From the NCBI GenBank assembly GCA_043760135.1, contig JAYUPL010000014.1, positions 25,347-89,346 on the forward strand: DNA of 64,000 nucleotides, read 5' to 3'. The position numbers were made by a program, and so were the translations under genes. Positions 3,508 to 51,205 of this stretch are shown piece after piece. Origin of the DNA: Candidatus Parcubacteria bacterium (GTDB lineage Bacteria; Patescibacteriota; Minisyncoccia; Phycocordibacterales; CAIZLB01). The notes under the pieces are model-generated. The model saw only the letters and a list, made by a program, of their open reading frames with translations. It did no database searches and was not told the DNA's origin. How positions within the stretch are numbered: the stretch's first letter is position 1; every line of letters begins with the position of its first letter.

Positions 3508-3951
3508 ATGAAAAAAAATCTCATCACATACTGCAAGCAAAAAGGTTTTACATTCATAGAGATGATAATTTCTCTCGGTCTGGTTGCTATGATATCAAGT
3601 CTTATTTTAGTCTCGTTCAATTCTTTGAACAATAAACAGTCACTTGATAAACAGATGGACTTTATAAAATCAGCAATAGGAAAAACGAGAACCAATGCTA
3701 TTAATTCACTTAACGGTGCAGATCAAGTGTTTACCTTTGCTTCAACTTCTATCACATATAATAGTCAAACGATAGATCTAGATCCAAGCATCTTATTGTC
3801 ATCATACACAACCGGCAGTAAAAATATTACATTTTCAAGATTAACAGGTTATCCAAGTGCTACAGGAACTCTGATTTACGTACTTCAAAAAGGAAGCACT
3901 GTTATTGCAACCAGTAGTATTACAATAAATAATTTAGGAATTATAGAATAA
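3508..3951 (+). CDS. prepilin-type N-terminal methylation-domain protein (pilin/pseudopilin)
   Basis: N-terminus KGFTFIEMIISLGLVAMISSLILV (G-F-T-x-x-E prepilin motif followed by a hydrophobic helix). Confidence 0.7.
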   Translation: MKKNLITYCKQKGFTFIEMIISLGLVAMISSLILVSFNSLNNKQSLDKQMDFIKSAIGKTRTNAINSLNGADQVFTFASTSITYNSQTIDLDPSILLSSYTTGSKNITFSRLTGYPSATGTLIYVLQKGSTVIATSSITINNLGIIE

Positions 3952-35130: not shown

Positions 35131-35155
35131 AAAAACGCCCACATGGGCGTTTTTC
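35131..35155 (-). terminator. hairpin aaaaacgccc-acat-gggcgttttt downstream of the minus-strand tRNA
   Basis: Perfect 10-bp stem flanked by A/T runs. Confidence 0.55.
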
Positions 35156-35158
35156 TTA

Positions 35159-35230
35159 CTGTGCTCCTGTTAGGAATCGACCTCTACGAGGTCAGTATAC
35201 CTTTGTGGTTTTCTCGGACCAAAGGTCCTC
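35159..35230 (-). other. degenerate tRNA-like remnant sharing a 22-bp 3'-tRNA segment with tRNA-Arg
   Basis: ctgtgctcctgttaggaatcga (35159..35180) differs by 1 nt from 35301..35322 (T-loop, T-stem, acceptor 3' strand, 2-nt trailer). Upstream sequence cannot form a D-arm, anticodon arm or acceptor stem. Confidence 0.4.
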
Positions 35231-35302
35231 AAAAACATCACAAAGCTTTTCGATTCCTAAAAACCCTTCGGATTTTTTAACTCGAACATATCGTAACAAT
35301 CT

Positions 35303-35375
35303 GTGCTCCCGTTAGGAATCGAACCTAAATTTACAGTTCCGCAAACTATTGTCCTATCCATTGAACGACGAGAGC
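35303..35375 (-). tRNA. tRNA-Arg (anticodon GCG by manual folding)
   Basis: Acceptor gctctcg/cgggagc, D-arm gttc-aatggata-ggac, anticodon arm atagt-ttGCGga-actgt, T-arm ttagg-ttcgatt-cctaa. No encoded CCA. Confidence 0.65.
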
Positions 35376-43973: not shown

Positions 43974-44103
43974 TATATGAAAATTTGGTAGGTGTAAATA
44001 GGGATGATTGGGTCCTTATATTATGACCTTTGTGGTTACAGGACCAGTATATCTTTCGAATCTCACCCGCAAGCCGAACTGTCGGCTTGCTCTCCATCTA
44101 ATG

Positions 44104-47627: not shown

Positions 47628-47630
47628 CAG

Positions 47631-47659
47631 GCACTTCTATTTTGCCAAGGCAAAATATG
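47631..47659 (+). repeat. tRNA-trailer hairpin motif gcacttctattttgccaaggcaaaatatg (copy 1)
   Basis: 27 of 29 nt identical to the reverse complement of 50335..50363, which directly follows tRNA-Val. Confidence 0.5.
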
Positions 47660-47839
47660 TCGCACAAAAAAATATTCGCTCATGCGAAAAAGACCGGAAT
47701 AATCCCATCTCCTAGTGAGATGGGATTTTCCTCTGACTCAGACCTACTGGTCTTCTGTAAAGCCTTTTTCTTCTTCACTCGTGTTTAGTTAAGTGATAAA
47801 AACTTTTTGTGAATAAATGATTCTCCCTCTGTAATAAAA

Positions 47840-49574: not shown

Positions 49575-49663
49575 TATAGATAATTTTACAAAATTTGTTG
49601 ACTTAGATAAATAGTATATTCCAATTTTGTAAAAAGTTGCACTTGTGTAATTTGAGAATATAA

Positions 49664-50023
49664 TTGTCTGTAATGAATCCAAACATTAACAACCAAAAAG
49701 GAATAAAAGATGATATGTCAGTGAAGGAACTGGCTGTTTTGATGATGGAAGGTTTTGCCGTTGTTAATAAAAGGATAGATAAACTTGAGGGAAGACTCGA
49801 TAGTTTAGAAAATAGATTTGATCATTTAGAATCTTACATGAAAGAAGGTTTTGAGGCTATTGATCAACGTTTTGATGATTTGGAAAATAGGTTTGGAAGA
49901 TTTGAAACTCGCTTTAATAAATTTGAAAAAGAGGTAAGTAGGCACTTATCCATAATAGATAAAAATATGGTAAATCCATTTGAGTTTCAGGCACTGTCTT
50001 TGAAGGTTGAACAGCTGGGGTAG
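49664..50023 (+). CDS. hypothetical coiled-coil protein with RFD..LE..RF heptad-like repeats
   Basis: Repeated xRFDxLExRFxxxExRF units over 119 aa. Confidence 0.4.
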   Translation: MSVMNPNINNQKGIKDDMSVKELAVLMMEGFAVVNKRIDKLEGRLDSLENRFDHLESYMKEGFEAIDQRFDDLENRFGRFETRFNKFEKEVSRHLSIIDKNMVNPFEFQALSLKVEQLG

Positions 50024-50199
50024 GGTGCTATCATTATCTATGAATATCAAGATAAAACGATAGCAGATGTTGATAGGTTGGTGGGTGTATAAATAAGAAT
50101 CATACGTAAGGACCAGTATTTTTCTATCTCATTTCACCAAGGATCATTCGATAAAGAAAAATTTTTCACTTGTATTTTGGGTCCCTAACTCAAAGCTCA

Positions 50200-50284
50200 C
50201 TCACAGAACTGCCACAGGGCAGTTCCTATTGCTAAAACTCTTTCAAGTCCCTCACAAAATTGCCATCAGGCAATTTTTATCGCT
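50200..50284 (+). repeat. two 34-nt tandem hairpin units (ctcacaGaaCtgccaCAGggcaGttCCtatTgct / ctcacaAaaTtgccaTCAggcaAttTTtatCgct)
   Basis: The units are 51 nt apart. Stems differ by compensatory c-g to t-a changes. Confidence 0.45.
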
Positions 50285-50295
50285 TATATTGTGCA

Positions 50296-50333
50296 AAATA
50301 AATAGAGCCCTTAAAAAAGGACCCTATTTATTT
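50296..50333. terminator. long AT-rich palindrome aaataaatag-agcccttaaaaaaggacc-ctatttattt
   Basis: 10-bp perfect outer stem with an inner cctt/aagg stem. Confidence 0.4.
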
Positions 50334-50334
50334 C

Positions 50335-50363
50335 ACATTTTGCCTTGGCAAAATAGAAGTACA
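50335..50363 (-). repeat. tRNA-trailer hairpin motif (copy 2, follows tRNA-Val on the minus strand)
   Basis: Minus-strand reading gtacttctattttgccaaggcaaaatgtg. Confidence 0.5.
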
Positions 50364-50369
50364 CTTGTT

Positions 50370-50442
50370 GTGCGCGATGAGGGACTTGAACCCCCGACCT
50401 TCTCAGTGTAAATGAGTTGCTCTACCAACTGAGCTAATCGCG
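50370..50442 (-). tRNA. tRNA-Val (anticodon TAC)
   Basis: Reverse complement gcgcgat-ta-gctc-agttggta-gagc-a-actca-ttTACac-tgaga-aggtc-ggggg-ttcaagt-ccctc-atcgcgc-a. Classic D-arm. Confidence 0.8.
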
Positions 50443-50512
50443 CTCTCACGTAAAAATAATATATCATATTCCGATTTGATATACAAATACAACTATAGTA
50501 ATCTAATACTAT

Positions 50513-50595
50513 GCGCAGGTGGCGAAACGGTAGACGCACTACCTTGAGGTGGTAGCGCCCGCAAGGGTGTGGGAGTTCAAATCTCCCCCCGCGCA
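50513..50595 (+). tRNA. tRNA-Leu (anticodon GAG), class II
   Basis: gcgcagg-tg-gcgaaacggtagacgc-a-ctacc-ttGAGgt-ggtag-cgcccgcaagggtgt-gggag-ttcaaat-ctccc-cccgcgc-a. One A:C mismatch in the acceptor stem. Confidence 0.75.
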
Positions 50596-50596
50596 C

Positions 50597-51205
50597 ATGA
50601 AAAATGTAGAATTAATACAAGACAAAAAGTATACCCTTGGTAAAAGGGCTTTCTGGTTCTTATTTTTTAAACATGGTTACAAACCTTTTCTCGTTTTATT
50701 GGCTTGTGGAACTATTGTATATTTTATAAACACAGCCAACTTCGAAAGCTGGCTTTCTACTGTAGATACTATTATTACGGTCGGTCTTTTAAATCTTTGG
50801 ATTATATCTTTGATTCTATCTATATTATTTTTAATATTTGTTTCAACATTTGAACGATATATTCAGCATAAATTTTTATTAGGAGAGCATTCATTTCATG
50901 TTCGAAGGGGAATATTTATGGTGAAAGAAAAAGTTATTCCATATAGACATATTCAAAATGTAGACATTGATAGACCATATCACTACAGACTGCTTGGTTT
51001 ATCAAAGTTAAATATTACAACTGCCCGACTCGACAACTTTGAAGATGAGAAGACAAATCTTATCCCTTTGATCGACAAACACCTTGCTAAAAAGTTATCA
51101 GATTTTTTAATTAAACAAGGTGTTATGAGTCATAAAGGTTATGCTGTAACAGTAGATCAAACTCCAAACACTGCTGTTATTATTGAGGAAATAAATCAAG
51201 AATAA
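50597..51205 (+). CDS. membrane protein with bacterial PH (bPH_2/YdbS-like) domain
   Basis: Two TM helices followed by HVRRGIFMVKEKVIPYRHIQNVDIDRPYHYRLLGLSKL (PH-like). Start set after the tRNA. Confidence 0.5.
   Translation: MKNVELIQDKKYTLGKRAFWFLFFKHGYKPFLVLLACGTIVYFINTANFESWLSTVDTIITVGLLNLWIISLILSILFLIFVSTFERYIQHKFLLGEHSFHVRRGIFMVKEKVIPYRHIQNVDIDRPYHYRLLGLSKLNITTARLDNFEDEKTNLIPLIDKHLAKKLSDFLIKQGVMSHKGYAVTVDQTPNTAVIIEEINQE

Follow-up and report, generated by a model that had tools for sequence, protein, structure and literature searches.

What are the two similar hairpins that stand beside a tRNA-Val(tac) gene in the 64,000-nucleotide stretch of Patescibacteria DNA analyzed here (hereafter, the window), and do they belong to this locus alone? 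They lie between positions 50024 and 50369, in a region bounded by a 119-codon coiled-coil open reading frame (ORF; 49664-50023, + strand) and the tRNA gene. The window is AT-rich (34.6% G+C), and its proteins point to Patescibacteria of the Paceibacteria/Nomurabacteria type. A first-pass annotation had described the region as non-coding, which holds, as its sole ORF is a 60-codon frame running into the tRNA, and had offered a family of small structured repeats, protein-binding sites or a small RNA (sRNA) locus as possible readings. Our findings show that the two units are worn pieces of an undescribed family of folded elements of ~125 nt, here called X, which stands behind tRNA genes of Patescibacteria. 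The idea of a family is thus borne out, but the units themselves are not the repeat unit; they represent only the 3' module of the larger, tRNA-tied element. Further copies, conservation in relatives and covariation, which the annotation had named as checks, all proved positive.

The two units form a direct-repeat family, as the first reading had noticed (50197-50233 and 50248-50284; 37 nt, 73% identical, 51-nt spacing). Their shared consensus, CTCACARAAYTGCCANNRGGCARTT, occurs twice in the 64 kb and in none of 100 shuffles, even with three mismatches allowed. Each unit carries a perfect hairpin with an 8- or 9-bp stem and a 4-nt loop, the two stems differ by two compensatory double changes (C-G to T-A and G-C to A-T), and the fold of 50195-50290 has a z-score of -4.45. 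The neighboring PGA_cap (poly-gamma-glutamate capsule-synthesis) protein has homologues at 60-73% identity, and the gene order on their contigs is Peptidase_C39, PGA_cap, tRNA-Val, tRNA-Leu, bPH_2 and PAP2. In syntenic relatives, the gap between PGA_cap and tRNA-Val contains a conserved non-coding element of ~125 nt, which is X, and unit 2 of the window corresponds to its last third.

X measures ~125 nt, or ~145 nt with full arms, and is always placed tail-to-tail with a tRNA gene; the description here follows the strand that does not encode the tRNA. Its 5' arm, designated a, is the antisense of the last 21-23 nt of the tRNA (nucleotides 76 to 54). The scaffold is enclosed by helix P1, in which GGGACTTGA at the opening of X pairs with TCAAGTCCC near its end, and within P1 lies P2, a 5-6-bp hairpin with the loop YUACR, in which UAC is invariant. 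P2 is followed by the junction CAGTAYACC, the long hairpin P3 and CTTTTC, and after P1 come NCAC, the 9-bp hairpin P4 and TATCGC. The second arm, a', presents the same tRNA segment inverted: its first base is exactly nucleotide 54, it continues through the 3' strand of the T-stem, is split by P4 at the junction of T-stem and acceptor (65/66), and resumes with the acceptor 3' strand and the discriminator. Past a' there is a short cargo, normally a terminator only and sometimes genes, and then the intact tRNA. When both arms are present, X is predicted to form a closing stem of 21-23 bp, a replica of the double-stranded 3' end of the tRNA gene from which P4 protrudes.

This architecture is supported by covariation. 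RNAalifold recovers the X fold, and covariance models (R1 and R2) were built from 15 or 37 copies. In the alignment of 37 copies, 93.4% of the cells are paired and double changes occur at 22 of the 26 pairs; the covariation score is 0.618, compared with 0.158 for shuffled alignments (none of 500 reaches 0.618) and at most 0.134 for slid registers. At its gathering thresholds, Rfam 15 recognizes only tRNAs in the window and 10 related loci, and at E-values up to 10 the best non-tRNA matches on X itself score 15-28 bits against thresholds of 50-123. No description of elements like X was found in the searchable full-text literature; as far as these two sources go, the family is undescribed and unusual.

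The association with tRNA genes is strict. Matches to the covariance models stand behind nine tRNA gene types (by anticodon) in ~17 Patescibacteria assemblies, three of them in the window. The hosts comprise Val, Arg-tct, Arg-gcg, Ser-tga, Ser-gct, Leu-gag and His(gtg), with Arg(tct), Leu(gag), Ser(tga), Ser(gct) and His(gtg) represented in the loci fetched for comparison (designated by L numbers), where 13 of the 30 bystander tRNAs, that is, those other than Val, carry X. A search with the 3'-module pattern TTTCAARTCCCNCMC-N22-TATCRC identified X in 11 of 15 matches from a genome collection of species representatives and in 3 of 13 metagenome matches; all 14 are from Patescibacteria, and the remaining matches are obvious chance occurrences in unrelated organisms. 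Every model match of at least 37 bits lies behind a tRNA gene or is the outer copy of an array, and all are convergent with the tRNA, whereas control DNA, consisting of unrelated sequences and Patescibacteria loci without tRNA genes (two loci from more distant relatives served here as negative controls), scores at best 20.5 bits. Intact copies lie 15-102 nt from the tRNA 3' end, with a rearranged copy in L022 at 144 nt. In nearly all copies, a' is an exact 11-13-nt copy of the local tRNA from nucleotide 54 onward, and arm a is of full length (16-27 nt) at 12 loci, where it forms a direct repeat of the tRNA end on the chromosome.

Two individual copies deserve separate mention. In L036 (138-381), an X behind tRNA-Leu has mutually complementary arms (GTGCGCGGGAGAGG / CCTCTCCCGCGCAC); these differ from the adjacent tRNA at three acceptor positions (GCCCAGG/CCTGGGC) and match the tRNA-Leu of L024. 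In L043 (10440-10960; IMGVR_UViG_3300000970_000154), a canonical X lies between two tRNA-Ser genes on a contig filed as viral, which may be host DNA or the edge of a provirus.

Within the window, the copy behind tRNA-Arg(gcg) displays the complete anatomy and scores 73 bits with R1 and 92 bits with R2. Its arm a (35160-35181) repeats directly, at 21 of 22 positions, the stretch 35302-35323, which is antisense to the 3' end of the tRNA; the shared sequence reads TGTGCTCC(T/C)GTTAGGAATCGA. P2, P3 and the inverted copy TTCGATTCCTAA follow, and P4 doubles as a terminator. The original terminator of this tRNA gene is now separated from it by X. The copy behind tRNA-Ser(tga) is reduced, with a 21-nt insertion in the P2 loop and P3 deleted, and keeps intact both P4 and, ahead of it, the inverted copy TTCGAATCTCACC, with an exact match of 13 nt to the end of the tRNA; CTCC comes after P4.

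At tRNA-Val, the region 50024-50369 contains the decayed remains of at least two X copies, followed by the terminator of the tRNA gene and by a second, separate module (Y, described below). The upstream remnant lacks the 5' arm as well as the 5' arm and loop of P2, aligns base for base with copy A of L009 (GGACCGGTATTTTTCTATCTCATTTCGCCAAGGCTCATTCGATAAAGAAAAATTTTTCA), and is included in the R2 match at 50115-50287. No significant fold was obtained for 50097-50240 (z -1.3/-1.5), which fits decay of the upstream part. The P4 stem of unit 1, CTGCC/GGCAG, recurs in the outer partial copy of L017. In unit 2, TTCAAGTCCCTCA (50242-50254) is an exact 13-nt inverted copy of nucleotides 54-66 of tRNA-Val (match at 50378-50390), corresponding to the T-loop and the 3' strand of the T-stem, and TATCGC (50278-50283) is the remnant of the acceptor strand; the module as a whole aligns to its equivalent in 15 relatives. 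The array scores 44.8 bits with R1 (50205-50287) and 45.7 bits with R2 (50115-50287). What remains of the complete anatomy is the P3 of one copy and two 3' modules. Because arm a and most of P2 are lost, the array is probably inert.

Table 1. Positions of X copies, their remnants and neighboring features in the window
Feature	Position	Strand	Description
Original terminator of tRNA-Arg(gcg), retained	35134-35155	-	Hairpin AAAAACGCCC-ACAT-GGGCGTTTTT, right outside the direct repeat
Intact X behind tRNA-Arg(gcg)	35160-35287	+	Best-preserved X of the window; model hit 35172-35287
Reduced X behind tRNA-Ser(tga)	44004-44100	+	37.3 bits (R1), 38.3 bits (R2; 44023-44100)
Y module behind tRNA-Arg(tct)	47628-47667	+	CACAGGCACTTCTATTTTGCCAAGGCAAAATATGTCGCAC
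X remnant, A type	50110-50168	+	P2 3' arm GGACC, junction AGTAT, P3 hairpin, TTTTTCA
CTTGTATTTTGGGTCCCTAAC	50169-50189	+	Probably, with low confidence from sequence likeness, degenerate 5' arm and P2 5' half of a second X copy (compare GGACTTG-GTCC-TTAC)
Unit 1	50190-50233	+	Degenerate T-loop/T-stem copy (TCAAAGCTCACTCAC), P4 hairpin, TATTGC
Unit 1 hairpin (P4)	50206-50225		GAACTGCC-ACAG-GGCAGTTC
Unit 2, intact X 3' module	50240-50283	+	CTTT; TTCAAGTCCCTCA; P4; TATCGC
Unit 2 hairpin (P4)	50256-50277		AAAATTGCC-ATCA-GGCAATTTT
Intrinsic terminator of tRNA-Val (the 38-nt palindrome)	50296-50333	-	Stable hairpin and T-run just past the gene
Y module at tRNA-Val	50337-50360	-	24-nt exact repeat of 47633-47656(+); found in no shuffle
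tRNA-Val(tac)	50370-50443	-	ARAGORN; Rfam tRNA 70.4 bits; gene to which the X remnants attach
tRNA-Leu(gag)	50513-50596		Next tRNA after tRNA-Val(tac)

Comparison of orthologous sites indicates that X is an insertion: it is absent from empty sites and flanked by a direct repeat. The flanks of tRNA-Arg(tct) align across five genomes. L009 has the bare site ...GAGAGCAC|CAAATATTCAC..., L002 and L008 carry ~170 nt at that point, made up of a terminator, X and a second occurrence of the tRNA end, and in the window and L006 the position is taken up by a 40-60-nt Y hairpin module. Similarly, the 3' end of tRNA-Leu(gag) is abutted by the ATG of the bPH_2 membrane-protein gene in the window (50513-50600), L008 and L028, and L025 has X and a 19-nt repeat at that boundary; L010 has a tRNA-Val without X. 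The tRNA-Arg(tct) and tRNA-Leu(gag) sites were compared in place of tRNA-Arg(gcg), for whose 213-aa neighbor protein the database contains no homologue. Just outside a complete arm a there is often an older terminator, as at the tRNA-Arg(gcg) of the window and in L032, L039 and L017; this would be expected of an X that on entry separated the tRNA from its original terminator and supplied another.

Copies also accumulate at single sites. In L017, a partial and a full copy are followed by two ORFs, a further copy and the tRNA, and L009 has two copies around an RDD-family gene; arrays with an extra 3' module occur in L018 and L022, and the window offers a further array. Within one metagenome-assembled genome (MAG), the X behind tRNA-Val (L018) and the X behind tRNA-Leu (L024) are 89.5% identical, whereas copies behind tRNA-Val are 67-73% identical between genomes, which points to spread or conversion within a genome.

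The wobble pairs bear on whether X is folded as DNA or as RNA. Helices P2-P4 comprise 645 Watson-Crick pairs in 667 stem cells, with 10 G.U pairs on one strand versus 12 on the other, whereas 23 tRNAs of these loci have, in their acceptor and T stems, 255 Watson-Crick, 18 G.U and 2 A.C pairs. The G.U fraction thus differs between X and the tRNAs (p = 1.5e-4), and the strand asymmetry of the wobbles is significant for the tRNAs (p = 4e-4) and not for X (p = 0.83); G.U pairs confined to one transcribed strand, the mark of a one-strand RNA, are not what X displays. In 35 of 37 copies the better fold is that of the tRNA-sense strand, but shuffled sequences show the same gap of 5-6 kcal/mol (-26.1 vs -20.3), so that folding energy was rejected as a guide to the strand. 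The advantage is due to base composition (C 25.5%, G 17.1%), and z-scores slightly favor the opposite strand. Several copies start 5 nt past a terminator and all are followed by one, on both strands, and these flanking terminators appear to leave no room for a promoter on either strand; a promoter scan of the region gave results at chance level, in a group whose promoters are poorly defined. Taken at the level of sequence, the wobble pattern suggests pairing in DNA, as single-stranded hairpins or cruciforms, rather than in an RNA made from one strand. The sRNA locus proposed in the annotation finds no support, given the apparent lack of promoter space, the terminators on both sides and stems that are Watson-Crick on both strands, and protein-binding sites do not fit stems that keep pairing while their sequence changes.

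On balance, these sequence comparisons make us lean toward X as an insertion element of small size, non-autonomous and acting at the level of DNA. How it might enter the chromosome is a more tentative matter, for which the phage CTXphi provides an analogy. In CTXphi, two dif-like sites in opposite orientation, ~90 bp apart, form a forked hairpin of 150 nt, one pair of strands is exchanged, and one functional and two non-functional sites remain (PMC3089051). By a similar route, single-stranded circular X DNA, moved by a postulated enzyme encoded elsewhere, would fold back on itself, pairing a with a' into a duplex that again resembles the target; a recombinase would exchange one strand of this folded copy with the chromosomal tRNA gene, and replication would fix the exchange, leaving the order a, scaffold, a', cargo and functional target. 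The order seen at X loci, with the intact target last, matches what CTXphi leaves at dif, and recombination of a folded single strand would explain why the stems are Watson-Crick on both strands. Integration by a folded single strand is possible, though clearly less probable than an insertion at the DNA level as such.

Several observations weigh against this explanation. No recombinase or transposase was found in the called genes of 20 loci or in the scanned ORFs (Pfam on the cargo ORFs and ten window ORFs), whole genomes not having been searched, and the mobilizing enzyme is a pure postulate. Nor was there a circular form, a phage or plasmid copy, or a pair of identical copies that would prove recent movement: a single scan of IMG/VR with the Val pattern gave no match, and the scaffold pattern gave one true match there, apparently host DNA between two tRNA-Ser genes. 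At orthologous sites, P1-P4 stay intact with compensatory changes while the outer arm a decays, and such retention could equally reflect a host function. In very small genomes, an X at ~40% of the tRNA genes is also compatible with a useful RNA, and the matching of a' to each new tRNA lacks an explanation in the insertion model. The low G.U count rests on 22 events, and the unpaired segments of X are purine-rich, with more G than C on the tRNA-sense strand, as in many RNAs.

In the principal alternative, X is a functional non-coding RNA that accompanies the tRNA and would most plausibly be read through on the tRNA-sense strand. Its topology would be that of a tRNA minihelix, comprising the acceptor 5' strand, one hairpin replacing the D and anticodon arms, the T-stem, a greatly expanded T-loop and the tRNA's own 3' strand; the 13 + 8 nt antisense to the tRNA 3' end could serve in maturation, quality control or decoying, and the units of the window would be a dead copy of such an RNA gene. 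The strong covariation, the invariant loop and junction nucleotides, the long retention at orthologous sites and the high occupancy in reduced genomes all agree with this view, as do the purine-rich single strands and the excess of G over C on the tRNA-sense strand. Moreover, a' stays an exact copy of the local T-loop and T-stem even where arm a has decayed, full-length copies fold with a closed, acceptor-like stem, and the arms of the L036 tRNA-Leu copy remain complementary to each other though three positions away from the local tRNA. Nevertheless, such an RNA would apparently have no promoter space, and a terminator stands between the tRNA and X, often with another past X; G.U pairs are few and evenly divided between the strands, in contrast to the neighboring tRNAs, and the folding advantage of X on the tRNA-sense strand is wholly compositional. 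Empty and filled sites, arrays and flanking repeats are signatures of insertion, and no Rfam family matches. We regard a functional RNA as a serious but rather unlikely account of X. About equally doubtful is the further idea that X is an element whose choice of target is encoded in its own nucleic acid, or else a domesticated, tRNA-specific companion RNA. In the first form, the split a' (13 + 8 nt around P4) would direct insertion behind one particular tRNA gene, and an altered a' would retarget X, resulting in a programmable, protein-poor insertion system; in the second, X would be a companion RNA at a large share of Patescibacteria tRNA genes.

Ordinary integrative elements offer another source for such DNA. 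X could be the leftover attachment (att) DNA, that is, attL/attR and arm remnants, of integrase-bearing islands or prophages at the tRNA T-loop, with terminators added, and would then be comparable to cis-mobilizable remnants. The stretch from the T-loop to the 3' end is the classic identity block of tRNA-integrating elements, and it is exactly what the direct repeat of X spans; accessory genes and remnants of diversity-generating retroelements (DGRs) lie between or just outside X copies, and the gene of a large serine recombinase abuts tRNA-Ser in L006. However, independent deletions would not leave the same 125-nt, three-hairpin unit at nine tRNA types in ~17 assemblies, the inverted a' has no role in the recombination of double-stranded att sites, no integrase adjoins any X, and the sequence beside the T-loop copy contains no conserved second core site, so that this origin appears improbable. 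Still more remote is a purely local function, with the units as a locus-specific sRNA gene or as tandem operators for neighboring genes. It could draw on the presence of two similar hairpins in one intergenic region and on weak, sub-threshold Rfam sRNA matches over the hairpin-terminator stretch, but those matches are far below the gathering scores (26 vs 64 bits), the same module stands behind tRNA genes in many genomes, the window copy is without half of the element, and the unconserved stem sequence speaks against operators; we give this reading hardly any weight.

Several further candidates were considered and rejected. Anticodon mimicry was suggested by the UAC of P2, which equals the tRNA-Val anticodon; the same loop occurs behind Arg, Ser, Leu and His, and has 3-5 nt, not 7. 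A link to reverse transcriptase (RT) was dismissed, as the L012 fragment is the N-terminal half of a DGR RT and ordinary DGR cassettes carry RT without X. A phage or plasmid origin was set aside after the Val pattern gave 0 matches in the viral collection and the single match to the scaffold pattern looked like host DNA. Hammerhead and other ribozymes, group I introns, T-boxes and two-piece transfer-messenger RNA do not fit the anatomy and give no Rfam match where a model exists, and neither IS200/IS605 ends nor a long target duplication of the Cas1/casposase kind fit it.

The remaining hairpins of the region are of other kinds. The AT-rich palindrome reported in the annotation is real, with arms of 17 nt (50296-50312 and 50317-50333) that are 88% complementary, and it is the rho-independent terminator of tRNA-Val, an ordinary part of the locus. 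Together with the trailer hairpin, it folds with -31.0 kcal/mol (z -6.8) on the tRNA strand versus -19.0 kcal/mol (z -3.7) on the + strand; at two positions the - strand forms G.U where the + strand has A.C, so that it is fully paired on the tRNA strand alone. The same hairpin is found at the same place in L012 (identical) and L020 (near-identical). Like other rho-independent terminators, it has a G+C-cored hairpin preceded by an A-tract and followed by a T-tract, downstream of a tRNA gene; a simple terminator scanner passed over it because of its 20-pair, A/T-rich stem.

The trailer hairpin, ATTTTGCCTTGGCAAAAT (50337-50354), is likewise present as described; the likeness to the unit stems that had been noted for it carries no sign of common descent, and it belongs to the separate 24-nt module Y. 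This is a second small hairpin repeat of tRNA 3' trailers, CAC.AGGCACTTCTAT-hairpin-ATA.GTCGCAC, located directly past tRNA 3' ends, which also occurs at L006 3521-3580 and, in tandem, at L028 965-1070. Relative to the empty site in L009, Y is an insertion whose closing end repeats the GCAC of the tRNA end. A further conserved motif, CTGACTCAGACCTA..GGTC.TC.GT.AAGCC, lies downstream of tRNA-Arg(tct) in several genomes, including the window (47733-47770) and L006 (~3640-3680), and appears again past the X behind tRNA-Leu in L025 (~2610-2650).

Other observations concern the surroundings of X at tRNA-Val. DGR remnants adjoin this X in L012 (3270-3530), L006 (6058-7529) and L051-L053; in L012, an N-terminal RT fragment is fused to the 3' half of X, and in L006, PG_binding and Lcl_C genes lie beside it. 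Intact DGR cassettes consist of an Lcl_C target, bAvd and RT, with the last split by gene calling into ORFs of ~170 and ~200-214 aa. In the window, the stretch 49580-50023 between PGA_cap and the X remnants contains the coiled-coil gene and the promoter-like TTGACTTAG...GAATATAAT; the homologue of this gene in L008, L009 and L010 lies upstream of Peptidase_C39_2, which implies that the gene moved into a variable zone beside tRNA-Val. In L006 (7895-7979), the place of the relatives' tRNA-Leu(gag) is taken by a tRNA to which ARAGORN assigns the anticodon tta ("Stop"), and whose D-arm is changed as well; this may be a suppressor tRNA or else a pseudogene.

Patescibacteria have tiny genomes with few recognized mobile elements. 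Standing behind about four in ten of the sampled tRNA genes, and coming and going between relatives, X adds a new piece to the genome biology of this group. If integration by a folded single strand is correct, X would extend the principle of CTXphi and integrons to tRNA genes and to elements without cargo, and would point to a recombinase with a readable target code; if the RNA reading is correct, X is a tRNA-specific partner molecule with no known counterpart. In practical terms, the X models not only account for many "conserved intergenic hairpins" beside tRNA genes in these genomes but also mark sites where accessory genes, such as DGR cassettes, accumulate.

Compared with known systems, X combines traits that are otherwise found apart. 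With miniature inverted-repeat transposable elements, or MITEs, and repetitive extragenic palindromes (REP/REPIN), it shares small size, the lack of coding capacity, multiple copies, hairpin formation, non-autonomy and a position at gene ends. In MITEs, the terminal inverted repeats derive from a parent transposon and the target duplication is short and of fixed length, whereas the "terminal inverted repeats" of X copy the target, not a transposon end, and vary with the tRNA; the duplication is 19-23 bp rather than 2-10, X stands strictly behind tRNA genes, and its scaffold has several hairpins with conserved loops. With tRNA-integrating islands and cis-mobilizable elements (CIMEs), it shares insertion at the T-loop, regeneration of the tRNA, a displaced 3' end that forms a direct repeat (16-27 nt at 12 loci) and tandem accretion at one tRNA gene. 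It differs from them in its total length of 125-190 bp, its additional inverted copy of the target and its conserved, covarying fold, as well as in having no integrase, since none lies adjacent and the scans of the viral collection gave no attP-bearing copy.

Integron cassettes, which use a trick related to the folded-strand entry of CTXphi, provide another parallel. In their attC sites, as in X, structure is conserved and stem sequence is not, extra-helical features occur in one arm, and short arrays with genes between the sites are formed (L009 and L017 in the case of X). The attC core RYYYAAC ... GTTRRRY is absent from X, however, whose stem base reads GGGACTTGAA/TTCAAGTCCC or its equivalent from other tRNAs; the arms of X are copies of a tRNA gene, its insertion is bordered by a long direct repeat, and no integron integrase (intI) or attI was present in the called genes of the 20 loci or the scanned ORFs, whole genomes not having been searched.

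Further counterparts are CTXphi and other elements that exploit Xer recombination and integrate as folded single-stranded DNA. These elements and X both have two inverted copies of the target, 75-90 nt apart, able to pair into a hairpin of ~150 nt, and carry no recombinase of their own. In X, the paired, inverted, target-like sites are a and a', which at 12 loci form a predicted closed stem, and the integrated order is likewise dead site, spacer, dead site, cargo and functional target. X differs from CTXphi in that it targets the 3' ends of tRNA genes rather than dif; its cargo is usually a terminator only and not a phage genome, its spacer is a conserved pair of hairpins, one of its arms contains the inserted P4, and its members exist for many different targets.

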